Source of the DNA: Deltaproteobacteria bacterium
GTDB lineage: Bacteria; Desulfobacterota; Desulfuromonadia; Geobacterales; Geobacteraceae
Direction: 5' to 3'
DNA length: 27,054 nt
NCBI GenBank assembly: GCA_021810985.1
Contig: JAJZQA010000001.1
Coordinates: forward strand, 1 to 27,054
Below are positions 5 to 10,781 of this stretch, piece after piece. A program made the position numbers and the translations under genes. The stretch's first letter is position 1, and every line of letters begins with the position of its first letter. The notes under the pieces were generated by a model. It was not told the origin of the DNA. It did no database searches and worked only from the letters and a program-made list of their open reading frames with translations.

Positions 5-898
5 GCCCTGCGGCCCAATGATTCCTGCATCGTCGGTATCGGGGTCCGCTTCGACCAGGGGCAGTTTGATCTGGCATCCGAGGTATACCAGGACTACAAT
101 TACGCCACGGGCAACTACTCTGCCGACCGGGAGTCGATTTTCGTCGACAAAACCTATAATTACGTTAGCCCCCGTGTCGGTGCGGTATACAAGATCAATG
201 ACATTTACAGCGTCTACGGCACCATTTCAACCGGTTTCCAGACCCCCCAGTCTTCGGAGTTGAGCACCAGCCAGGGGCTCGATCCCTCTACGACAATCAA
301 CTATGAAACCGGCGCCCGGGCCCGTTTCGAGGGCGGACACAGCATCGACCTGTCCCTGTTTTACATGGACGTTTCCGATGAGGTCGTGCAGACCTATCTG
401 CCAGGTGGCGAATCCTCCTACAGCAATGCCGGTTCCACTACTAAAAAGGGCATAGAACTTTCCGCCAAAGCCCAGGTGCTGCCCGGTCTCTATCTGGGCG
501 GTGCCTATACCTTCAGCGACTTCCACTTCGACACTTTCCAGGAGCCGATAAACGGCACGCTCCATAACCGTGACGGCAATTATCTCCCCTATATTCCCCG
601 GCACCAGTACAGCATGTACGGCTACTACAAGCATCCGTGCGGCTTCAAGGCCAAGCTCGAGACGTACAGTTGGGGCAAGTACTACGTGGACAACGCCAAT
701 TCCGAGCTGTATCACGGCTATGACTTCCTGACCAACCTGATGGTCGGCTATGAGCGCGGTAACTGGGACATCACCTTCGATGTCAACAATATCATCGACC
801 AGAAGTATGCCATAGAAGTCACGAAAGATACTGCGACCACACGCTATCGACCCGGCGCACCGATCAACTTCTTCGGCAAGATTACCTACACATTCTGA
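5..898 (+). CDS. TonB-dependent outer-membrane receptor, C-terminal beta-barrel part (5'-partial; in-frame TAG at 2-4, so possibly a pseudogene fragment)
   Basis: Frame 2 is open from 5 to TGA at 896-898, well upstream of the ORF-track start at 260. It reads ALRPNDSCIVGIGVRFDQ...VSPRVGAVYKIN...ISTGFQTP...INYETGAR...FDVNNIIDQKY...PGAPINFFGKITYTF, with typical TBDR barrel motifs and a C-terminal Phe. A TonB gene lies in the same operon. Confidence 0.9.
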   Translation, partial: ALRPNDSCIVGIGVRFDQGQFDLASEVYQDYNYATGNYSADRESIFVDKTYNYVSPRVGAVYKINDIYSVYGTISTGFQTPQSSELSTSQGLDPSTTINYETGARARFEGGHSIDLSLFYMDVSDEVVQTYLPGGESSYSNAGSTTKKGIELSAKAQVLPGLYLGGAYTFSDFHFDTFQEPINGTLHNRDGNYLPYIPRHQYSMYGYYKHPCGFKAKLETYSWGKYYVDNANSELYHGYDFLTNLMVGYERGNWDITFDVNNIIDQKYAIEVTKDTATTRYRPGAPINFFGKITYTF

Positions 899-908
899 GG
901 TGATGATC

Positions 909-1502
909 ATGAAATTTTCGACTATTGCCCTCTTTAGTCTGTCTGTCGTCATCAGTGCCGTTGCCGCGCATTATCGCTTCCATGATTCCGCCCATGCCAT
1001 CGGAATGCTGAAGATCGGTGGTGGCACGGCACGCCACCCGGCTGTGCTCGACAAGGAGCGTGACTCCCATGTGCTGATTGCCACCGCCGGCGTCGTTCCT
1101 CCGTTCCGCGGCAATGCACGGGTGGTCCTCGAGGGCGGGCGGGGACTTTCGGCTACGTTCCATAATGCCGAACCGGCGGTCAACCTCGGTTTACATCACC
1201 GGCCCGAATTTCGTGGTGACACCTATTACGACCTTCGACCGAAGGACCGGATCGCACTCTGGGTCAGGATCACGCGGAATGACAAACTTGAAAGCATCTC
1301 CAGTCAGATCGGCGCGTCTGTTCCCGCAGGGGCGGACGCCTTGACTGACTGTCCGCAACACCCGGCAGGGAGCGGCCTGCCGGCAGGGAAAAACAGAAGC
1401 GCAGGGCCGGCGCTGGCCTTCTACGATACCGCGACGAACGACCGGCTTCTCGGCATTCCGCTCAGATTCGTCGCATCGGGAGGTGCCAGCCATGGCCGTT
1501 GA
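909..1502 (+). CDS. Exported or membrane-anchored His-rich protein of unknown function
   Basis: ORF 900..1502. ATG 909 was chosen because GAGGTG lies at 897-902. N-terminal hydrophobic segment FSTIALFSLSVVISAVAA. The stop overlaps the next start, as expected within an operon. Confidence 0.8.
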   Translation: MKFSTIALFSLSVVISAVAAHYRFHDSAHAIGMLKIGGGTARHPAVLDKERDSHVLIATAGVVPPFRGNARVVLEGGRGLSATFHNAEPAVNLGLHHRPEFRGDTYYDLRPKDRIALWVRITRNDKLESISSQIGASVPAGADALTDCPQHPAGSGLPAGKNRSAGPALAFYDTATNDRLLGIPLRFVASGGASHGR

Positions 1503-2325
1503 GGAAAAGAACAAAGCAGTCCTTTCGCGGGGCAGAACCCTGATCATGGTTCTGTCACTGGTGCTGTTTCTGCCGCCCCTGGCGGTGATCTTTCAGGCTT
1601 CCTCCAGTGACATCGACTTCTGCGGCACCTGGTGCCCGCGGATGTTTTTTGCCGTGCGCCAGGGAGCCGGCCTGGGTGAAATCGCCGGTGGTATCATGCG
1701 CAGCTACCTGGGGGTGGCATTGGTTGCCGGAGTGCTCGTCAGCACCTTCTTTTTCGGACGCTACTGGTGCAGTCATTTTTGTCCCATCGGCGGTGCGGGA
1801 GAGCTGGGGAGCAAATTGACGCCGGCAAAAATGAAGCTCGATTATTCTTCCATACCCGCCGCGCCGGTGCGCTACGGATATCTCCTGGTCTATTGTGCCG
1901 CACCCTTGCTGGGGCTCGGCAGCCTTTGCTGCAGCTACTGCAATTTCGCCGCGGTTCCCAGCCTCTTCGGCGCGGCATTTGTCTCGGCTGACCTGGATTA
2001 TTTTCTCCGGTTTTACGGTATCATTAACCTTGTGTTGTTTCTCCTGTTGGCCGTTCTGGCGCGCGGAGGCAGGGCCTACTGCAATTTTCTCTGCCCGATA
2101 GGAGCGCTGGATGCGCTCTCAGCAAGGTTCGGACAGGGGATCGGCCGACGGGTGAGGGTTACGGCCGAGCGCTGCACGGCATGCGGCTCCTGCCGTGAGG
2201 TCTGCCCGACCTGGGCAATCAGCCTGGAATCGACGGCAAAAGTCGACCAATTATCTTGCTTTCCCTGCCGCAAGTGCGAGAAAGTATGCCCGGAAGGAGC
2301 GATACGATATGGCAAAGCGAAGTAA
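1492..2325 (+). CDS. NapH/MauN-like 4Fe-4S-binding integral membrane protein (polyferredoxin)
   Basis: GGAGG at 1479-1483 precedes ATG 1492. Several TM segments; CxxxCP motifs CGTWCP, CSHFCP and CNFLCP (the last two in GRYWC/GRAYC context); C-terminal 2x[4Fe-4S] motifs CTACGSCREVCP and CFPCRKCEKVCP. Confidence 0.88.
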   Translation: MAVEEKNKAVLSRGRTLIMVLSLVLFLPPLAVIFQASSSDIDFCGTWCPRMFFAVRQGAGLGEIAGGIMRSYLGVALVAGVLVSTFFFGRYWCSHFCPIGGAGELGSKLTPAKMKLDYSSIPAAPVRYGYLLVYCAAPLLGLGSLCCSYCNFAAVPSLFGAAFVSADLDYFLRFYGIINLVLFLLLAVLARGGRAYCNFLCPIGALDALSARFGQGIGRRVRVTAERCTACGSCREVCPTWAISLESTAKVDQLSCFPCRKCEKVCPEGAIRYGKAK

Positions 2326-2518
2326 ATCGATTGCCTATGGTGTTGTCGGTACCTGCGGTGGTATGGCAACCCTGGTATCGGCGGCCGGTCCCTGTGCAAC
2401 GGGAGAGTGCTCCGCCTGCTTCCGCTGTTTCGGCATGGGTATAATTCTGGTGGCTCTGGCACTTTTTCAACGGATGAGAAGGGGCGAAACGGATGGATTG
2501 GCTCACGACCGGAAATAA
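2309..2518 (+). CDS. Small Cys-rich membrane protein (69 aa)
   Basis: Internal ATG of track ORF 2195..2518, with AGGAG at 2295-2299. It overlaps both neighbours. MAKRSKSIAYGVVGTCGGMATLVSAAGPCATGECSACFRCFGMGIILVALALFQRMRR... has two hydrophobic stretches flanking C-x4-C-x2-C-x2-C. Confidence 0.7.
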   Translation: MAKRSKSIAYGVVGTCGGMATLVSAAGPCATGECSACFRCFGMGIILVALALFQRMRRGETDGLAHDRK

Positions 2519-3344
2519 TCAGCAGGGCGCGGGATCTCCGCTGGTCAGGGGCGGGCACTGTTGGTCGGCCTGCGCGCCTACGTCCCTGTCTGATCCGGCC
2601 GCTTTGCCGGGGAGGCGGGCCAGGCGTGATTTGACAAAGTGGCTTGGTCTTTCCCTCGGGTTGCATCTGGCTGTGCTGGGGTTTCTGGCGTTGTTTGCCA
2701 CCCTGCCGCCCAAGAACATCCGTCCGGTTGTTATCGACCTCACGCTGGCCGATTTTCCGGCAACGGTTGCACGACAGCCGGCGAAGCGGGAGTCGCCTCG
2801 TGCCGCAGCCCGCGTTTCGGTACCTGAGGATCGGAAGCAGGCGCTGAAGCGGGAGCCGGCAGCAAAGGTGAAACAGCCAGTGGTTCCTGCCGCTGAACCG
2901 CGTCTGCCGCCAGCCCTGCCGGTCGACCAGAAAATCGTGCCGGATGCCGGCAAGGCTCCCGGAGTGTCGACCGGCGGCACGGAACGGGTTGCCCGTGGAG
3001 ACACCCACCCGTCACCAGCGGTGTCCTCGGCTGGCAACAAGCAGGCTTCGGCCGGAAATGAAAGTCAGCGTTACCTGGCCGAACATTTCAGGTACATAGG
3101 CGACCTGGTGAGGAAACATCTGGTCTATCCCGCAATGGCGCAAAAGATGGGCTGGGGCGGCAAGGTGGTGGTGTCGTTTGTCATTATGGAAAACGGCTCT
3201 GCCGGCAACATTCATTTGGTGGAGAGCAGCGGTATTCCGCTGTTGGATAGAAGCGCGCTGGAGACGATCAGAAGGGCCTCTCCATTTCCCCGTCCGCCGG
3301 TCAAGGCCGAAATTGTCATTCCGGTCCAGTTCAAACTGCGCTGA
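2493..3344 (+). CDS. tonB: Energy transducer TonB
   Basis: TM anchor with S-x3-H (SLGLH), a Pro/Ala/Lys-rich spacer, and a TonB C-terminal domain (VYPAMAQKMGWGGKVVVSFVI...SSGIPLLDRSALETIRRASPFP...IPVQFKL). Confidence 0.92.
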   Translation: MDWLTTGNNQQGAGSPLVRGGHCWSACAPTSLSDPAALPGRRARRDLTKWLGLSLGLHLAVLGFLALFATLPPKNIRPVVIDLTLADFPATVARQPAKRESPRAAARVSVPEDRKQALKREPAAKVKQPVVPAAEPRLPPALPVDQKIVPDAGKAPGVSTGGTERVARGDTHPSPAVSSAGNKQASAGNESQRYLAEHFRYIGDLVRKHLVYPAMAQKMGWGGKVVVSFVIMENGSAGNIHLVESSGIPLLDRSALETIRRASPFPRPPVKAEIVIPVQFKLR

Positions 3345-3544
3345 ACCGTTGCGGATCTATCGATGGCGGAAAGATGCGAGTTGTCTCGCCGGCGCGTTGT
3401 CACAGGAATCGTCATAACGGTTGAGGTCGCTTTATCGCTGGAATTGCGACATTTTCCAATCAGCTGTTCGGCTAACAGCCGAAATCCAGGTAAACGCCGC
3501 CGGAATTTACCGGAACTATTGCCGGAAATGCAGCGGAGCGCGTG

Positions 3545-3573
3545 TTGACAATTCCCCTTGCCCCGTTTACCCT
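3545..3573 (+). promoter_or_regulatory. Putative sigma70 promoter for the NosL-family gene
   Basis: TTGACA (3545-3550), 17-nt spacer, TACCCT (3568-3573; fits TAnnnT). RBS AAGGAG at 3615-3620 and ATG at 3629. Confidence 0.6.
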
Positions 3574-3581
3574 TAAAAAAC

Positions 3582-3601
3582 AATCCCCCTTATGGGGGAT
3601 T
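3582..3601. promoter_or_regulatory. Perfect C/G-tract palindrome, candidate repressor operator or 5'-UTR hairpin
   Basis: AATCCCCC-ttat-GGGGGATT, 8 bp downstream of the predicted -10 box. Confidence 0.55.
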
Positions 3602-3628
3602 TGAAAAACAACAGAAGGAGATTTTATA

Positions 3629-4201
3629 ATGAAAAAGATTTTGTCCGGTTTTTCAGGCTTGGTGCTTCTCCTGGGTGTAGCCTTTTCTGCCATCGGCGCG
3701 CAACATAAACCATGTTGCGGCATGCCGGCCGCGCCAGCGGCGGTGGCGGCCCCTGCGGCCGGCAATGACGTCAAGACCTATGCTGAGTGCAAATATTGCG
3801 GAATGAACCGGGAAAAGTTCGCCTTCAGCAGAGTCCTTATCGAATATGACGACGGTACCGTCATGGGGTTGTGCAGTATTCACTGTGCTGCTGTCGATCT
3901 GGCAAATAACCTGGACCGGGCCCCGAAATCCATCAAGGTAGGGGATTATAACTCCCGGGAACTCATCGATGCCGAAAAAGCCTTCTGGGTGATGGGTGGC
4001 GCAAAGCAGGGTGTCATGACAAGGCAGCCCAAGTGGGCTTTTGCGAAAGAAGATGATGCGAAAAAATTCATCAAGGAAAACGGCGGAACCCTGGTAACGT
4101 TCGATCAGGCCATGAAAGCGGCCTATGATGATATGTTTCAGGATACCAAGATGCTCCGTGAAAAGCGGAAAATGATGCGGATGAAGATGGAGAAAAAATA
4201 A
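3629..4201 (+). CDS. nosL: NosL-family metal (Cu)-binding exported protein
   Basis: Signal peptide; CKYCGM and CSIHC motifs; IDAEKAFWVMG...GVMT...WAFAKEDDAKKFIKENGG matches the NosL family pattern. Confidence 0.8.
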   Translation: MKKILSGFSGLVLLLGVAFSAIGAQHKPCCGMPAAPAAVAAPAAGNDVKTYAECKYCGMNREKFAFSRVLIEYDDGTVMGLCSIHCAAVDLANNLDRAPKSIKVGDYNSRELIDAEKAFWVMGGAKQGVMTRQPKWAFAKEDDAKKFIKENGGTLVTFDQAMKAAYDDMFQDTKMLREKRKMMRMKMEKK

Positions 4202-4425: not shown

Positions 4426-5634
4426 ATGGCAATGTACGTCTTAAAACTAGGAGCGCCTGACGGGAAGATTCTCACCAGGGAGTACGAAGCGACAGAGCCG
4501 GCCGATTTGCGCAGAGAGCTGGAAGAGCAAGGATACCACATTTTCGAACTGCGCAAGCGGCCGGTACGGGGTTTTCTCAGGAGAGGCTTCGGCCGCGGCA
4601 AGGTAAAAAGTCGAGACCTGCTGCTCTTCAATCAGGAAATGCTGGTGTTGATCAGGGCCGGGTTACCGATTATTCAGGTGATTGACACGGTTCTCGGGCA
4701 GTATGAAAGTGGTCCGCTCAGCGCGGCCTTGAAACAGGTGCGGGAAGATGTAAAAGGCGGAGCCGCTCTCTCAGCTGCCCTGGAAAGACATCGTCAGGTC
4801 TTTCCGCCACTGTATACCGCATCCATACGGGCGGGAGAAAGAACCGGGGACCTTCCCGTTACCATCCAACGGTATATCGGTTATCTCCGGAAAATGGAGA
4901 GCGTGCGCAAAAAAATTATTTCTGCCTTGCTCTACCCCGCGATTCTTGTTGTCGTATCCATTTTCGCCATCAGCCTGCTCCTGTTCTATGTCATTCCGAT
5001 TCTCAGTACTGTCTTTTCCGAGTCCGGGTCGCAATTGCCGTTGCTCACCCGGATGATGATATCGTTTGCATCCCTTGTCAGGAGCTGGTCTCTGGTCGGC
5101 ATCCTTGCGGCAATTCCGCTCATCATTGCCTTCCGCTTCTGGGCTTCCGGCGAGACGGGACGTTATCTGGTTGACCGCTTCAAGCTTAAAATACCGTATA
5201 TTGGCGCGGTTATCATGGATTACTCCCTGACGAATTTTGTTCGCACCCTTGCCAACCTTCTGGGCGGAGGCATTCCGATCGTTGAAGCATTGCACATGTC
5301 AATGGGAACGCTGAACAATACCTATATGGAAAAACGCCTTGCGGGAGGCATCAAATCCATTGAAGAAGGGGGGCGTATTTCGGCCGCCTTCGAAAAGACC
5401 GGCATCATGCCGCCCCTTGCCATTCGCATGCTGCTGGTCGGGGAATCCACCGGAGCTCTTGAAGAGATGCTGGTTGGCATTTCAGAGTACCTTGAAGAGA
5501 CTCTGGAGGAACGGCTCCACCTTCTTACCTCCGCTTTCGAACCAATTATCATGATCGTGATGGGTCTGGTCATCGGGGTGATAATTATCGCCATGTACCT
5601 GCCGATCTTCAAAATTGCCGGAACGGTCGGCTAG
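4426..5634 (+). CDS. gspF: Type II secretion/type IV pilus inner-membrane platform protein (GspF/PilC family)
   Basis: Two T2SSF repeats: LIRAGLPI...IRAGERTGDL...ALLYPAIL and LLGGGIPIVEAL...VGESTGALEEML...EPIIMIVMGLVIGVIIIAMYLPIF. Confidence 0.93.
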   Translation: MAMYVLKLGAPDGKILTREYEATEPADLRRELEEQGYHIFELRKRPVRGFLRRGFGRGKVKSRDLLLFNQEMLVLIRAGLPIIQVIDTVLGQYESGPLSAALKQVREDVKGGAALSAALERHRQVFPPLYTASIRAGERTGDLPVTIQRYIGYLRKMESVRKKIISALLYPAILVVVSIFAISLLLFYVIPILSTVFSESGSQLPLLTRMMISFASLVRSWSLVGILAAIPLIIAFRFWASGETGRYLVDRFKLKIPYIGAVIMDYSLTNFVRTLANLLGGGIPIVEALHMSMGTLNNTYMEKRLAGGIKSIEEGGRISAAFEKTGIMPPLAIRMLLVGESTGALEEMLVGISEYLEETLEERLHLLTSAFEPIIMIVMGLVIGVIIIAMYLPIFKIAGTVG

Positions 5635-5651
5635 CAGAGGATACCTGGACA

Positions 5652-6575
5652 ATGTTTTCAAGGAAATCGCTCGGAGTTTCAGTTTCATCGTCGGCCGTGG
5701 CCTTTGCACGGGTGGGCGGTTCGCCGTCAGCGCCTCTTCTGGAGTCGGTTTCCAGCCGGCCCCTGTCGCCCGGCACCTTGCGCCCTTCGCTGCGGGACCT
5801 GAATGTTCTGAACCCGCAGGGATTCGTCATCGCTCTGCAGGAGGCGCGCAATTCCCTTTTCTGCCGGGGAAAATATGTTTCCGTTTCCCTGCCGGATGCC
5901 AGCGGACGTGTTATGATGTTCGATATGGAAGAGCGCTTTAAAAACCGTTCGGAAGGGCTCGAAATCCTGCGTTGGAAACTGAAGAAAAAACTTCCCTTTG
6001 ATGCGGCTGAGGCGCATCTTGATTTTCAGCAGGTTGGTACGCGGGAAAACGGCGACAGCGTGGTGCTGGTGGTGGTGGCGTACCGGCCGGTCATCGCCCA
6101 ATATGAGGAACTGCTCGCCGCCGCTGGTCTTATTCCGGCAGGGATTGATCTCAACTGTTTCAATCTCAACCGGGTATTCGAACGACGGCTGGCAAAGTCT
6201 GAATCTTACGCCTTTCTGACTCATTTCGATTCTTATCTGGGGATCATGTTCATTGCCGGAGGAAAGTTGGAATTCATCCGGTTCAGGGAACTGGCCGGAG
6301 ATGACGCGGAGTTCAATTCCGTTCATCAGGAAATCAGGCGTTCGTTCCTGTCGTACAAGTCGAAATCTCCGGAAGGAGAGATCAAGAACGTATTCTGCCT
6401 CGCACCGCCGCGGTTGGCTAGCGATTTTTGCGGGATCGCGCGAGATGCGATTGGTATTGAAGCGGTTCTCCTCGATCCAAAATCTGCTCTCGAAATCCGG
6501 GGAAAGGATTTTTCCGTCCCTGATCCGTTATTTCCCTTTATCTCGGCCATCGGAACGGCTTTACGGGCTCTGTGA
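5652..6575 (+). CDS. pilM: PilM-like cytoplasmic assembly protein
   Basis: LGVSVSSSAVAFA start, VSVSLPD, ILRWKLKKKLPFDAAEAHLDF and IAQYEELLAAAGLIPAGID match the PilM/actin-like pattern. It is first in an M-N-O-P-secretin array. Confidence 0.75.
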   Translation: MFSRKSLGVSVSSSAVAFARVGGSPSAPLLESVSSRPLSPGTLRPSLRDLNVLNPQGFVIALQEARNSLFCRGKYVSVSLPDASGRVMMFDMEERFKNRSEGLEILRWKLKKKLPFDAAEAHLDFQQVGTRENGDSVVLVVVAYRPVIAQYEELLAAAGLIPAGIDLNCFNLNRVFERRLAKSESYAFLTHFDSYLGIMFIAGGKLEFIRFRELAGDDAEFNSVHQEIRRSFLSYKSKSPEGEIKNVFCLAPPRLASDFCGIARDAIGIEAVLLDPKSALEIRGKDFSVPDPLFPFISAIGTALRAL

Positions 6576-7114
6576 TGCGATTTACCATTAATCTGGCAAC
6601 CAGAACAATTCTTGATCAGCGGCGGATCGACCGCGCCTGTCTGGTCGCGGTCGTTGTGTTGGCGTTCCTGCTGGCGGCGAATATACTGCTGTTTTCCTGG
6701 AATTTTGGAAAGCTGCGGCGTCTCGACGCGGAAACCAGCGAGATGAAGAAACAGTTGACACGGCCTCTACCGAAGATTCCCGAAAAAGAGCAAAACCTGA
6801 TAGTGGCGGACATAACTTTTTACAACGAGATCATCAAACGCAAGACATACGGCTGGCTTGGTTTCCTGGAAAAGCTGGAAGCAGCTACGCCGAATGGCAT
6901 CTCGCTCACCCTCCTCTCGCCAAACAAGGAAAAAGGCAGCCTGTCTCTCGAAGGTTGGGCACGCAATTTCAAGGCGATCGAAGAGTATTTGACACTGCTG
7001 GAGGACTCGGAAAATTTTTATGACGTTCTCCTGCTGTCTCATGAAAAAGAAGAATTATGGGAGCAGGCCAAGGGTGTCAGGTTTTCCCTTTCCTGCCGGG
7101 TGAGAGAGCAATGA
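6575..7114 (+). CDS. pilN: PilN-like protein
   Basis: MRFTINLA start, single TM, coiled coil, then WLGFLEKLEAATPNGISLTLL...LSLEGWARNFKAIEEYLTLLE, a PilN-type ferredoxin-like fold signature. Confidence 0.75.
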   Translation: MRFTINLATRTILDQRRIDRACLVAVVVLAFLLAANILLFSWNFGKLRRLDAETSEMKKQLTRPLPKIPEKEQNLIVADITFYNEIIKRKTYGWLGFLEKLEAATPNGISLTLLSPNKEKGSLSLEGWARNFKAIEEYLTLLEDSENFYDVLLLSHEKEELWEQAKGVRFSLSCRVREQ

Positions 7115-7656
7115 GACCGTCTCTAAAGGCATTATATGAACGAAAAAAGCCTTGGCTGCTGGTGATCGTGTTGTTGCTGCTCCTCAACATCAGCGCTATC
7201 GTTGTTCTACTGTTCTTCCAGCAGCCGCTGCTCAAGCAGAAGAAAGAGCTCGTGACGGAGCAACGTCAAGGCCTCGCTGCGCTGGAACGCGGGGATGCAA
7301 ACACCCTGTATCGAAAAGGTAAGGCCGATATGGAAAAATTGCAGGGGATGATTCCGCTCAAACGGCAATTTGCCCCACTCCTGGCGGATATCATGGCTGA
7401 TGCCGCGGAATGCCATGTTTCCAGTGACGCACTTACCTATAAACCGGAATATCTCAGTCAAAAGAAGATGCTGGTCTACCATGTTTCACTCTCGGTGAGC
7501 GGGCGATACGCGGATATTCGCTGTTATCTCTACAAAATGCAGACCAGGAAAGAGCTCGTGGTTATTGATTCCGTGATGCTGAAAAGCGAGGATCCCTACG
7601 TGGAAAAGGTCTCCATGGATCTCAAGTTGACGACCTATCTGAGGGACGGCGCATGA
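7111..7656 (+). CDS. pilO: PilO-like (GspM-like) protein
   Basis: ATGA overlap at 7111-7114. Single TM plus coiled coil; LSVSGRYADIRCYLYKMQTRKELVVIDSV matches the PilO pattern. Confidence 0.72.
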   Translation: MRPSLKALYERKKPWLLVIVLLLLLNISAIVVLLFFQQPLLKQKKELVTEQRQGLAALERGDANTLYRKGKADMEKLQGMIPLKRQFAPLLADIMADAAECHVSSDALTYKPEYLSQKKMLVYHVSLSVSGRYADIRCYLYKMQTRKELVVIDSVMLKSEDPYVEKVSMDLKLTTYLRDGA

Positions 7657-8282
7657 ACAGGCAGCGTCTGTTACTGATGATTCTGGTGCCAATACTGATT
7701 GCCACCTCACTCTGGAGCTATTATTCCTTTCCGCGGCAAAAAACCGTGGCCAAGCTAAAATATTCGCCGGGGTCCCGGGCGGTTGCCACCCGGGAGCGCT
7801 TGAAAGCGGCCGGGCCAGGCGTGAAACCAATGGACAGCCGCGTCCTGCGGCTCGATCTTCTGGAAAACCGCCCGGAATTCGCCGGCTACCAGCGGGATAT
7901 CTTCAGCCCGCTGTTTGTCGACCGGGAAACGATGCTGGAGCGGCAAGCCGCGGCAGCAGCGGCGGCGGCCGCCGCGGAGGCGGCGCGCAGGGCTCGCCTG
8001 GCGGGTCCGCCGCAGCCGGTCAAGCCTCTTCCCGTGCCGACCGGGGTGCAGACTGAGCTGGCGGCCTTCAAGCTGCACGGCTTTCTGAAAAAAGATGGGA
8101 AAAAAATCGTATTTCTGGCTAAGGGCCAGGAAATAACCCCGGTCAAGGAGGGAACTACCTTTGCCGGCCGCTATGTCGCGACGTCCATTACCGATCAGGT
8201 CATTATTCTGAAAGTAACCGGTACCGGTGAGGAGATAATAATCCCTTTGATAGAAAACGAGCCGCTGAGAGTTATGCGGTAA
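7653..8282 (+). CDS. Protein in the PilP/GspC position of the secretion operon
   Basis: ATGA overlap. N-terminal TM, RDIFSP motif, Ala/Pro linker, and C-terminal FKLHGFLKKDGKKIVFL...PVKEGTTFAGRYVATSITDQVIIL resembling the PilP/GspC-HR beta domain. Confidence 0.65.
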   Translation: MNRQRLLLMILVPILIATSLWSYYSFPRQKTVAKLKYSPGSRAVATRERLKAAGPGVKPMDSRVLRLDLLENRPEFAGYQRDIFSPLFVDRETMLERQAAAAAAAAAAEAARRARLAGPPQPVKPLPVPTGVQTELAAFKLHGFLKKDGKKIVFLAKGQEITPVKEGTTFAGRYVATSITDQVIILKVTGTGEEIIIPLIENEPLRVMR

Positions 8283-8330
8283 CAGTCGAACCCGGTCCTC
8301 TCAGGGAACCGGCATCCGAGGAGTCGACGA

Positions 8331-10781
8331 ATGCGTTCACTTATGTATCTGCTCTTAGCAGGTTGTGTCACCGCCACCCTGATCGGCTGTGCCGCGGGGC
8401 GGTCCTTCAACGCCGGGCAGGGTCTGGAAGACCAGGGCAAGTACGAAGAGGCCATGCTCAGTTATGCGGATGCCTTTCGTGCTGATCCCGAGGTCGTAGA
8501 ATACCGGGCACGCTTTCTCACCGCACGCGACCGGGCGGCGGAAATTCGCTATGCGAAGGGTCTGGAAGAATTCAGGGCCGGTGACTATCCTGCTGCTTTG
8601 AAGGATTTCCAGGTCGCCTATGTGCTCGACCCCAGCAAAGAGATCTACCGGCAGAAGGTCGATGCCACAATGCGGAAAAGGGATGCGCTAGAGGCGTATA
8701 ATGAAGGGCTGGCGTTCGAGAAAGACAACAAGCCGAAATACGCGAAACTTGCCTACGAGAAAGCTCTTGATCTGGATCCGGAAGAGCCGGAATACAAACA
8801 GGCCAGGGCCCGGGTGCGTGGGCAGCTCGACTCCAGGATGGCCGGGTATGAATTGCAGCTCTCCTCGCTGAAACCCTTTGCCTTCAAATTCAACGGCGCC
8901 GGTCTCAAGGGAGTTTTCCGGATTCTGACTCAGCTTTCCGGCATCAATTTCATCTTTGACGAAGCGGTCAAGGACACTCCGGTTACCATCAATCTGGATC
9001 GGACGAATTTCCGGCAGGTGCTGGATCTGCTGAGCACCATGCACAAACTCGGCAGTACGGTCCTCAATGAAAAGACCGTGCTGATCTTTCCCAAGACGGC
9101 CGATAAGGTCAAACAGTACGAGAATATGGAATTGCACACCTTCCATCTCAATTACATGGACGCGAAAAAGGGCATCAACCTGATTCGCAGCATGTTGCCG
9201 GCCCGCAAGGTCTACGTCAATGAAGAAACCAACTCCATCGTCGTACGGGACAATAGTGATACCGTAGCGGTGATAGAGCGGTTGCTGGATGCCAATGACG
9301 TACCGGATGCGGAGGTGCTGCTGGATGTTGAAGTCATTGAGCTGAACGACAAGGACACCAAGAATGTCGGGCTGCTGTTGAGCCGTTATGGCGTCGATCT
9401 CGGTGCCTTTAATCTGAGCAGCGGCAAGTTGCTGGCCGACACGCTGGTCAATGCCCAAACGACCGGAAGCACCACGACCACGGACGCGAGCATTTCCAAT
9501 CTGATCAATGCCTTCAACTGGAACGGCTTCGGCGGATTCGTGACGGTGCCGAATGCCACCTATAATTTCGGTAAAACGTTTGCGAAGGGAGAGGTCCTCT
9601 CCAATCCGAAAATCCGGGTGAAAAACAAGGAAAAGGCCAAGTTCACGGTCGGCACCCGGGTGCCGATCACCACCACCACGACCAATGGGACGATCGGCGG
9701 TTTCAGCGTGAATGTCCAGTATGTGGATGTGGGGGTAAAGCTCAACGCCGAACCATTGATTCAGCTCAACAACACGATCGACATCAAGCTGAGTCTGGAA
9801 GTCAGTTCCATCGTACAGAAGGAAACGCTGGCCGACAAGACAACTACCGTTGTCACCATCGGCACTCGCAACCTGGAAACCGTGCTGAGCCTGAAAGATG
9901 GTGAAACGAGCGTCATTGGCGGTCTCATATCCCGGACCAATACCGACAGCCAGAATAAGATCTTCCTGCTGGGAGACATTCCCGTCATCGGGCCGTTTAT
10001 CTCCGGAAACAGCAATAGCAAGGAAAAGACCGAAATAGTGCTTGCCATCACACCCCATCTGATGCGAGGCCTGATAGCACCTCCGGCCAATGCCACGTCA
10101 TTCATGTCCGGAAAGGAAGATGACCCCTCCCTGGCCCTGTTCCCGCCAGCTTCCGATGAAGAGCCGGGGCAAGCTGCAGCGGTACCGCGATTCGCTGCTC
10201 CTCCGGCTGTTTCCCAACCGGCTGCGCCGCCGCCCGCTTTCGCGCCGCAGGCTACTTCAACCTCGCTTCCCGGTCAACCTGGGGAAACCCCCGCCGCTAC
10301 GGCTCAGGCTGTTGCTCCTGTGGCGATCCCGGTATCTCCCGGGACAGTTTCGAATCAGGGTTCTTCCTTGCAAAGTGGTTCGCTGATCATTGCGACCCCG
10401 CCAGTGAGTAAAGTGGGTGAGACGTTCACCCTGGAAATTCGTGCCGAGAATGTCGGCGCTGTTATGTCGGCGCCATTTTCTTTGACCTTCGATCCGAATT
10501 ATGTCGAACCTGAAGCTGTATCACCAGGGACATTTCTGCAAAAACAGGGCTTGCAAACGAATTTCTCCAGTTCCACTGACCCAAGTGGCGCTATTAATGT
10601 CGATGTATCACTTCCCGATGGAGCTACCGTCGCAGGCGGAAGCGGTATTCTGGCAACCGCTGTATTCCGTGCCAAAAAGCCAGGGGTCGCGGCGTTCGGA
10701 TTCCGGGATGTTGCGTTCAAATCGGATACAGGAGCTAATGTCCCGGTAATTCCGGTGGCAGCCTCCTTGAATATTCAGTAA
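8331..10781 (+). CDS. gspD: Secretin (GspD/PilQ family) lipoprotein with N-terminal TPR region and C-terminal cohesin-like domain
   Basis: Lipobox LIGC; TPR-like helices; N-domains (FRILTQLSGINFIFD); secretin core (LSNPKIRVKNKEKAKFTVGTRVP, YVDVGVKLNAEP, LKDGETSVIGGL, KIFLLGDIPVIGPF, KTEIVLAITPHL); Pro/Ala linker; cohesin-like VGETFTLEIRAENV...FSLTFDPNYV...GSGILATAVFRAKKPG. Confidence 0.93.
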   Translation: MRSLMYLLLAGCVTATLIGCAAGRSFNAGQGLEDQGKYEEAMLSYADAFRADPEVVEYRARFLTARDRAAEIRYAKGLEEFRAGDYPAALKDFQVAYVLDPSKEIYRQKVDATMRKRDALEAYNEGLAFEKDNKPKYAKLAYEKALDLDPEEPEYKQARARVRGQLDSRMAGYELQLSSLKPFAFKFNGAGLKGVFRILTQLSGINFIFDEAVKDTPVTINLDRTNFRQVLDLLSTMHKLGSTVLNEKTVLIFPKTADKVKQYENMELHTFHLNYMDAKKGINLIRSMLPARKVYVNEETNSIVVRDNSDTVAVIERLLDANDVPDAEVLLDVEVIELNDKDTKNVGLLLSRYGVDLGAFNLSSGKLLADTLVNAQTTGSTTTTDASISNLINAFNWNGFGGFVTVPNATYNFGKTFAKGEVLSNPKIRVKNKEKAKFTVGTRVPITTTTTNGTIGGFSVNVQYVDVGVKLNAEPLIQLNNTIDIKLSLEVSSIVQKETLADKTTTVVTIGTRNLETVLSLKDGETSVIGGLISRTNTDSQNKIFLLGDIPVIGPFISGNSNSKEKTEIVLAITPHLMRGLIAPPANATSFMSGKEDDPSLALFPPASDEEPGQAAAVPRFAAPPAVSQPAAPPPAFAPQATSTSLPGQPGETPAATAQAVAPVAIPVSPGTVSNQGSSLQSGSLIIATPPVSKVGETFTLEIRAENVGAVMSAPFSLTFDPNYVEPEAVSPGTFLQKQGLQTNFSSSTDPSGAINVDVSLPDGATVAGGSGILATAVFRAKKPGVAAFGFRDVAFKSDTGANVPVIPVAASLNIQ

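Follow-up and report, generated by a model that had tools for sequence, protein, structure and literature searches.

In Bordetella pertussis, the TonB-dependent copper importer CrtA is encoded in the same operon as the membrane reductase CrpH, the function of which overlaps with that of ccoG (PMC13038864). This pair is the closest known analogue of the gene cluster described here, which encodes a TonB-dependent receptor, an exported protein (P200), a membrane polyferredoxin (FER) and a cysteine-rich membrane peptide (pep), and which lies at the start of a 27,054-nucleotide (nt) stretch of DNA from a Deltaproteobacteria bacterium of the family Geobacteraceae (assembly GCA_021810985.1, contig JAJZQA010000001.1). 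This stretch, referred to below as the window, is the whole of contig C172 of a metagenome-assembled genome (MAG) that is 69% complete and comprises 386 contigs; a mine-drainage metagenome provides its best DNA match. In both systems, reduction of the imported metal is attributed to an inner membrane redox protein that is encoded together with the TonB-dependent importer. CrpH, however, is a heme-binding PepSY_TM protein of aerobes with heme-copper oxidases, whereas FER is an iron-sulfur (Fe-S) protein of the NapH/YccM fold found in anaerobes, and the cluster adds a four-cysteine peptide and an orphan periplasmic protein. As regards homology, the comparison covers the receptor superfamily. The original prediction for this locus had likened its membrane protein to the PepSY reductases of siderophore systems, an analogy for which CrtA-CrpH provides a published copper counterpart (PMC13038864).

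Several other described systems share individual components with the cluster. Firstly, CcoG/FixG and Escherichia coli YccM resemble FER in being membrane polyferredoxins with CX3CP motifs and a 2x[4Fe-4S] domain, and CcoG has been characterized as a Cu(II)-specific reductase that, in vitro, reduces Cu(II) and not Fe(III) (reviewed in PMC7558416). CcoG is oriented toward the cytoplasm, and its role is in the export of copper to cbb3 oxidase; FER is shorter (277 amino acids, aa), lacks the FixG_C immunoglobulin (Ig)-like domain, contains five extra invariant cysteines, and, in the loci examined, never occurs in a ccoGHIS context. Secondly, NapH, MauN, NosH and NosR share their fold and a pair of cytoplasmic CX3CP motifs with FER, but FER has no NapG, NapA, nosZ or mau partner. 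Thirdly, the Fet/Ftr iron systems (FetMP-FetABCDEF of Campylobacter and E. coli, and FtrABCD of Bordetella and Brucella, the latter including the NapH-like polyferredoxin FtrD) share YHS domains, DUF2318 (PF10080) and an FtsX/MacB-type ATP-binding cassette (ABC) component with the loci considered here, but contain an Ftr1-type permease, P19 and thioredoxins, none of which was seen in the present cluster with its core of receptor and TonB-ExbBD. Additionally, NosL-NosDFY pairs a NosL-family periplasmic protein with an ABC-type machine, as does the NosL-s99-FtsX-ABC-P341 operon described below; the latter differs in the absence of nosZ and nosD, in an ABC component of the MacB/FtsX type rather than NosFY, and, in the window, in a NosL protein without a lipobox. 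Lastly, OprC/NosA share with the present receptor a proposed role in the import of copper across the outer membrane, although the receptor is, among solved structures, closest to PqqU/YncD and carries no conserved Cys/Met/His metal site.

Full-text searches returned no literature description of the cluster. Little is known of how anaerobic bacteria in sediments acquire copper and other trace metals trapped by sulfide, and those inner membrane copper importers and reductases that are known come from aerobes. The analyses presented below suggest, with a probability that we place at roughly 0.5, that the cluster is a system for TonB-dependent metal acquisition with a membrane redox partner, of a kind already known and here assembled from three families without a name, namely P200, pep and the FER subfamily.

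A conserved, translationally coupled gene cluster

All genes of the cluster lie on the forward strand. The window opens within the receptor gene (positions 5-898), of which the contig start leaves the C-terminal 298 aa (PF00593, E 5e-26), and continues with P200 (909-1502; 197 aa; no Pfam or NCBIfam family), FER (1492-2325; 277 aa; PF12801, Fer4_5, E 1e-17, in addition to dicluster ferredoxin families) and pep (2309-2518; 69 aa; no Pfam family), followed by a gene encoding a TonB energy transducer (2493-3344; PF03544, E 5e-20, and TIGR01352). As originally predicted, the genes abut or overlap at these junctions, the overlaps amounting to 11 nt between P200 and FER, 17 nt between FER and pep, and 26 nt between pep and TonB, and a Shine-Dalgarno-like purine run is present at each start of the overlapping genes. 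The ATG start of P200 is preceded by GAGGTG, and an alternative GTG is found at position 900.

The distribution of the cluster was assessed by a motif-seeded scan of one genome per species, covering approximately 185,000 species, which returned at most 239 FER carriers, the best 80 of which were examined. Three of these 80 loci encode true NapH (27% identity) and serve as a built-in control, while the other 77 are related, species-level FER loci. Neighbors were counted using hidden Markov models (HMMs) built from the cluster proteins, and since the denominators include the three NapH control loci, the true fractions are slightly higher than those given here. By this measure, the receptor is found 5' of FER in 57 of 63 testable loci, P200 5' of FER in 61 of 75 (73 of 80 by BLAST clustering), and pep homologues directly 3' of FER in 70 of 77, while among 64 testable loci a TonB gene follows pep in 41 and ExbB/ExbD genes lie 3' of FER in 32-33. 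The gene order receptor-P200-FER-pep is observed in almost all of the 77 related loci, usually with ExbB-ExbD-TonB next, and the carriers belong to at least seven phyla (Desulfobacterota, Nitrospirota, Acidobacteriota, Planctomycetota, Bacteroidota, Myxococcota and Schekmanbacteria) as well as a few Pseudomonadota. Close full-length homologues of FER (approximately 277 aa) occur in many uncultured anaerobes, with P200 homologues on the same contigs. The same order together with overlapping junctions is seen in a Geobacteraceae MAG, in the complete genome of Desulfuromonas soudanensis WTL (CP010802.1, approximately 3.714-3.733 Mb; L003), a cultured carrier of the four-gene core that is open to genetic work, and in Nitrospiraceae MAGs, with ExbB-ExbD-TonB added in the Desulfuromonas soudanensis and Nitrospiraceae contexts. 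Because the same order recurs in dozens of distantly related genomes, the gene neighborhood is not a product of chance. Receptor, P200, FER and pep form one conserved, translationally coupled unit, in agreement with the single operon inferred earlier from the window. The main objection foreseen in the original prediction, that other genomes might not share this gene combination, was examined in these comparisons and does not apply.

Clustering of the neighboring genes revealed, as other conserved neighbors, only lineage-specific two-component regulators and SurA. Within the class to which the window belongs, the cluster is present in 12 of 401 sampled genomes, and within the genus in 2 of 15; given this rare and patchy occurrence, it is probably an accessory, mobile trait.

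The cluster also stands apart from the pathways in which NapH-like proteins are typically encountered, consistent with the originally noted lack of napA, nosZ, nosD and mau genes in the window. True NapH homologues (27% identity; loci L083 and L084) reside inside napA-napG-napH-napB-napC operons, whereas NapG and NapA are encoded neither in the window nor among the conserved neighbors of the 77 loci, and no cco genes were found in the FER loci examined. In Nitrospiraceae UBA6902 (L004:3721-5423, L023), the cluster lies immediately 3' of napA-G-H-B-D, such that true NapH and FER are encoded 4 kb apart; this side by side occurrence indicates that the two are not interchangeable. Of the 401 class genomes, 2 yielded a nosZ match, and the 12 that are FER-positive, the present 69%-complete MAG included, yielded none. 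A link to nitrous oxide (N2O) reductase was ruled out on the basis of the absence of nosZ from these 12 FER carriers.

Features of the core proteins

FER contains four transmembrane (TM) helices, three CX3CP motifs, an invariant CCxxC motif and a C-terminal 2x[4Fe-4S] domain, after which the sequence stops. The four helices, two cytoplasmic CX3CP motifs and the C-terminal domain are common to NapH, to which FER adds the third CX3CP and the CCxxC. Profile comparison (hhalign) relates FER to E. coli YccM (E 3e-16), E. coli NapH (E 1e-13) and Nitrospiraceae NapH (E 9e-11), and the predicted structure resembles YccM (TM-score 0.57), MauN, NosR and NirI. FER is 27% identical to E. coli NapH over its full length, and the NapH models TIGR02163 and NF007013 score 57.2 bits against a cut-off of 213 and 52.4 bits against 234, respectively. 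With scores so far under the cut-offs and no nap operon context, the identification of FER as NapH was rejected. FER is a separate subfamily of the NapH/YccM/NosR (Fer4_5) superfamily, neither NapH nor CcoG; the earlier description of the protein as NapH-like holds at the level of the superfamily but is too narrow, as FER resembles the CcoG/YccM (cupric reductase) branch at least as well.

Two cysteine motifs set the subfamily apart. C44-x3-C48-P and C146-C147-x2-C150 are kept in all or nearly all of 50 FER members, and neither is found in NapH or YccM. Hydropathy, charge bias and the AlphaFold model concur on a topology of four TM helices in which both termini are cytoplasmic, and the family-specific cysteines sit in the loops of lowest K+R density, the predicted periplasmic side. 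The five family-specific cysteines of FER are thus predicted to face the periplasm.

An alignment of 87 open reading frames defines pep as a family of 65-72 aa with basic ends and two Gly/Ala-rich hydrophobic segments, connected by an invariant turn of the form C-x(3,4)-C-x2-C-x2-C (C-x4-C-x2-C-x2-C in the window). On the simplest reading, the peptide forms a hairpin in the membrane, partners FER and contributes four more cysteines on the same face, which departs from its original portrayal as a chaperone, the predicted hairpin not being soluble. Its cysteine turn is predicted to pack against loop 1 of FER and the outer end of TM3. A second interpretation is that pep is the precursor of a ribosomal peptide metallophore, with FER acting in its maturation, since methanobactin-type operons also include a TonB-dependent receptor. 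Consistent with such a role, a small cysteine-rich gene adjoins the receptor, and pep weakly matches the heterocycloanthracin/sonorensin bacteriocin model, albeit below the cut-off (E 0.007; 16.9 bits against 35). However, neither a maturation enzyme (MbnBC, YcaO or radical SAM) nor an exporter is conserved, the cysteines lie between two hydrophobic segments with basic ends in the pattern of a membrane hairpin, and conservation extends over the whole peptide, including the C-terminal tail, with no visible division into leader and core. We therefore regard a metallophore precursor as very improbable.

P200 is modeled as a Sec signal peptide followed by a beta-sandwich (AlphaFold pLDDT 75), and its family comprises 88 representatives among 1.84 billion clustered proteins, all of them stand-alone and none fused to other domains. 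The protein is exported, as proposed from the window, but the "His-rich" label describes it only modestly, with 10 histidines in 197 aa of which two are invariant across the family; the invariant residues include Asp29, His32, His46, Glu78 and Asp116. Fold searches (Foldseek against the PDB and AFDB, VIA-align wide, and ESM Atlas) returned only generic beta-sandwich matches, weakly cupredoxin-like or Ig-like, and comparison with the FixG-related Ig domain 2r39 remained at background level (Z 6.5, rank 19). ESM Atlas feature searches with P200, and with the P341 protein discussed below, found no named relatives. A disordered insert in P200 (residues 129-167) marks the site at which relatives carry a YHS/TRASH domain. 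Positioned between two strands, this insert is a complete YHS/TRASH metal-binding domain in Nitrospirota-type members, whereas in Geobacterales it has decayed to a CxxC loop or, in the window, to DCPQH. Accordingly, the YHS model (PF04945) finds no match in P200 of the window but scores 49.1 bits, against a cut-off of 30.3, in the L004 orthologue.

Full-length relatives of the receptor measure approximately 700-740 aa and consist of a Plug and a barrel. The window receptor is 51% identical to residues 395-701 of the Desulfuromonas soudanensis receptor; its Plug (PF07715) lies off the contig but is present in orthologues from four loci (L003, L004, L006 and L007), of which L006 (738 aa) and L007 encode an intact receptor. 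No contig carrying the N-terminal half was found in the bin. An in-frame TAG at positions 2-4 falls within the last five bases of the contig, which display no homology to intact relatives, the alignment starting at base 6; because these terminal bases do not align to intact orthologues, the TAG is not evidence of a pseudogene. In a Geobacteraceae MAG with 89% FER identity (L002:6216-8420), the receptor is frameshifted into separate Plug and barrel open reading frames, either through sequencing error or through decay in that strain.

At the family level, the receptor scores best against the siderophore-receptor subfamily TIGR01783 (209.5 bits, a little short of the cut-off of 223.5), while the nearest solved relatives of the full-length Desulfuromonas soudanensis receptor are PqqU/YncD (E 1e-43). 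A copper receptor of the OprC/NosA type, against which the original prediction had proposed to compare it, was rejected: a conserved Cys/Met/His site is lacking, and OprC is not among the PDB matches of the receptor at E below 1e-10. That the nearest solved relatives import pyrroloquinoline quinone (PQQ) raises the question of a substrate other than a metal, with FER and pep serving as a NapH-like electron conduit for the periplasmic redox chemistry of an imported sulfur compound, quinone or PQQ-like cofactor. NapH-like proteins do act modularly as electron conduits for many periplasmic oxidoreductases (PMC8238504), and many carriers are sulfur-cycling anaerobes. Yet conservation in the cluster does not extend to any periplasmic oxidoreductase, FMN-binding domain, ApbE or cytochrome, P200 bears no signature of a cofactor-binding family, and the accessory domains that recur (YHS, NosL and PF10080) are solely those of metal trafficking. 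A non-metal substrate consequently appears improbable.

The TonB protein consists of an N-terminal TM anchor, a Pro-rich spacer and a C-terminal TonB domain. Its start is ambiguous, in that position 2493 gives the longest open reading frame while homology to relatives (L006) begins near 2630. The TonB gene is present in the window and in L006 and missing from the L002 and L007 loci.

NosL and the candidate substrates of the cluster

Canonical NosL proteins are lipoproteins, and their known function is the delivery of Cu(I). The NosL-family periplasmic protein of the window (3629-4201, forward strand; 190 aa; PF05573, 61.7 bits against a cut-off of 24) begins with a signal peptide of type I that ends in AIGA-QH, without a lipobox cysteine. 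Its mature N-terminus reads Q-H-K-P-C-C-G-M and is followed by an Ala/Pro-rich linker (3629-3790), and the protein also contains a C-x2-C-G-M motif that is conserved among the NosL relatives of these loci. Its family had been correctly recognized in the original prediction. A 285-nt spacer (3345-3628, forward strand) with its own promoter-like site precedes the gene, and NosL is found within 10 kb of FER in 15 of the 77 related loci (PF10080/DUF2318 lipoproteins in 11 of 77). NosL is a facultative neighbor of the FER core.

NosL belongs mainly to a separate and far more widespread operon, NosL-s99-FtsX-ABC-P341, a block that several FER loci also hold. With one or two NosL genes, this operon is self-contained in 12 of 12 further genomes (L088-L099). 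Neither P341 nor s99 has a family name; P341 is a polytopic protein in which GAMC, SCC and H-x-C-x2-C motifs are conserved. P341 is present in 181 of the 401 genomes of the class (45%), comprising 11 of 12 FER-positive and 170 of 389 FER-negative genomes, and in the present MAG the operon is situated on contig edges (C166:4533-4889 and C71:5765-7879). As nosZ was found in 2 of the 401 genomes and in no FER carrier searched, these NosL proteins are not N2O reductase chaperones. The operon has the appearance of an ABC machine that depends on NosL, is undescribed and has no relation to N2O reductase. To this commoner, NosL-centered machine, the FER cluster would seem to be an optional front end. 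In another genome of the same family (L092:2994-10116), a different receptor-NosL-TonB set, lacking FER, lies immediately in front of the NosL-ABC-P341 operon and constitutes another, independent connection of NosL modules with TonB-dependent import.

The recurrence of metal-trafficking domains (YHS, NosL and PF10080) around the core supports the link to metals made in the original prediction, and we consider the chances about even that the cluster takes up a scarce thiophilic metal in a TonB-dependent manner and reduces or translocates it at the inner membrane by Fe-S/thiol chemistry. In such a scheme, the receptor would take in the metal, free or chelated, in a TonB-powered step, and P200, by means of its invariant histidines and carboxylates and, in most lineages, the YHS insert, would capture it in the periplasm. 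FER and pep would together constitute an inner membrane module with nine invariant cysteines (FER C44-x3-C48 and C146-C147-x2-C150; pep C-x4-C-x2-C-x2-C) at the predicted periplasmic face. These cysteines would be wired across the membrane to the two cytoplasmic CX3CP motifs and the 2x[4Fe-4S] domain, such that cytoplasmic or quinol-derived electrons might either reduce the metal (Cu(II) to Cu(I), as in CcoG) or keep the thiolates reduced, and the thiolate-lined site could then pass the ion across the membrane or to NosL-type chaperones.

Copper is the favored, if tentative, candidate for this metal, in part because the known role of NosL is Cu(I) delivery. It is further favored because the reductase CcoG, to which FER is homologous, is specific for Cu(II) (PMC7558416), because YHS domains are found in copper ATPases (PMC3707914), and because a copper operon composed of a receptor and a membrane reductase, CrtA-CrpH, has been described and overlaps genetically with ccoG (PMC13038864). 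If copper is indeed the substrate, the scheme of receptor and membrane reductase known from Bordetella would come to include Fe-S chemistry, the NosL proteins of non-denitrifiers would gain a function, a second widespread orphan operon (NosL-s99-FtsX-ABC-P341, in 45% of sampled class genomes) would be explained, and the genes would make it possible to study how metals limit anaerobic processes in sediments and mine drainage. More doubtful still is the proposal that FER and pep, with P200 as loader, make up a new class of Fe-S-powered inner membrane metal translocase-reductase. It would reduce copper received from the receptor at a thiolate-lined periplasmic site and send Cu(I) inward or to NosL-type chaperones, with NosL-s99-FtsX-ABC-P341 as the distribution machine; if true, it would supply the missing inner membrane step of high-affinity copper uptake in anaerobes.

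A number of observations weigh against the uptake of a thiophilic metal such as copper. The nearest solved relatives of the receptor import PQQ, and no OprC-like Cys/Met/His cluster is shared by 63 near-full-length receptors, in which only His328 is conserved. The YHS insert is degenerate in P200 of the window, and the invariant His, Asp and Glu residues of the family would be no less suited to Fe, Zn or Ni than to Cu(II). The assignment of the FER cysteines to the periplasm derives from hydropathy, charge bias and a model of medium confidence, in which residues 38-55 have a pLDDT below 50, and most FER loci are without NosL. Searches for regulatory signals were similarly unsupportive: no riboswitch or other Rfam element, tRNAs apart, was found upstream of seven orthologous clusters; the Fur box was not enriched over control regions in 56 receptor upstream regions; IdeR, Zur, CueR, CsoR, NikR, ModE and CopY operators gave no convincing matches; and two metatranscriptomes of the source study gave no contigs over the region. 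De novo k-mer enrichment upstream yielded only an AT-rich intergenic bias and a few lineage-specific words, and no member of the CsoR/RcnR family was found in the 69%-complete MAG. Lastly, YHS, DUF2318 and the FtsX-type ABC component are all parts of Campylobacter FetA-D, which functions in iron uptake (PMC10783030).

This last point bears directly on the possibility of iron acquisition, in which the receptor would import a ferric chelate or colloid, FER and pep would act as a periplasm-facing ferric reductase or, in the manner proposed for FtrD of FtrABCD and for FetA-F of FetMP systems, as the electron sink or source of a redox-coupled step, and YHS, DUF2318 and the MacB-type ABC would play accessory roles as in Campylobacter FetABCD. 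There, FetA carries DUF2318 and YHS, FetBCD is an ABC transporter, and growth under iron limitation requires all of them (PMC10783030). The recurrence of YHS, DUF2318 and the FtsX/MacB-type ABC around FER, the subthreshold siderophore-receptor match and the suitability for iron of the invariant residues of P200 are all in keeping with such a role, and were it correct, the cluster would tie TonB-dependent import to the poorly understood redox accessory proteins of Fet/Ftr systems. Set against these are the lack of Fur box enrichment upstream of the 56 receptors and the absence of the Ftr1/FetM permease, P19 and Feo from the conserved neighbors, no FTR1/P19 model search of the genomes having been made. 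Furthermore, the carriers live anaerobically in mine drainage and iron-rich sediments, settings in which Fe(II) is as a rule abundant, and NosL, as a deliverer of Cu(I), together with nine membrane-surface cysteines, suggests a softer metal. Given, in addition, that CcoG is active on Cu(II) and inactive on Fe(III) in vitro (PMC7558416), we judge iron acquisition, although the main rival to copper, to be rather unlikely.

Other thiophilic substrates, namely Zn, Ni, Co, Cd or thiometallates such as tetrathiomolybdate in sulfidic habitats, might be taken up with FER and pep serving mainly as a binding and translocation path rather than as a reductase. Besides Cu, the cysteine-rich TRASH/YHS and NosL domains can bind Zn, and the Shewanella denitrificans NosL is reported, according to a title cited in PMC11213822, to form a heterometal site. 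Some FER loci adjoin nap genes, which encode a Mo enzyme, and a weak TOBE match is found upstream in one Acidobacteriota group, but neither type of neighbor is conserved. Likewise, there were no NikR, Zur or ModE operator matches and no Ni/Co or Moco riboswitch, and the conserved 2x[4Fe-4S] domain and CX3CP motifs imply electron transfer, which would be needless for the uptake of Zn or Cd. These substrates are accordingly held to be quite unlikely.

The NosL spacer and flanking genes

Within the spacer that separates TonB from NosL, a perfect palindrome with an 8-bp stem (3582-3601; C5-TTAT-G5 core) is positioned between a strong promoter-like site and the NosL start, and could represent either an operator or, on the minus strand, a hairpin resembling a terminator. 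L006 retains part of the palindrome, with changes in the stem, whereas L002 lacks it. In a close strain from a freshwater-sediment metagenome (run X2), 189 nt of the spacer (3347-3535) are replaced by nine other letters, and most of the TonB-NosL spacer is therefore dispensable.

Directly after NosL lies a type IV pilus block (4426-10781) consisting of pilC-pilM-N-O-P and a secretin with a cohesin-like domain. As pilus genes begin at 4426, the unit ends at NosL. The succession of NosL and pilus genes is also present in L002.

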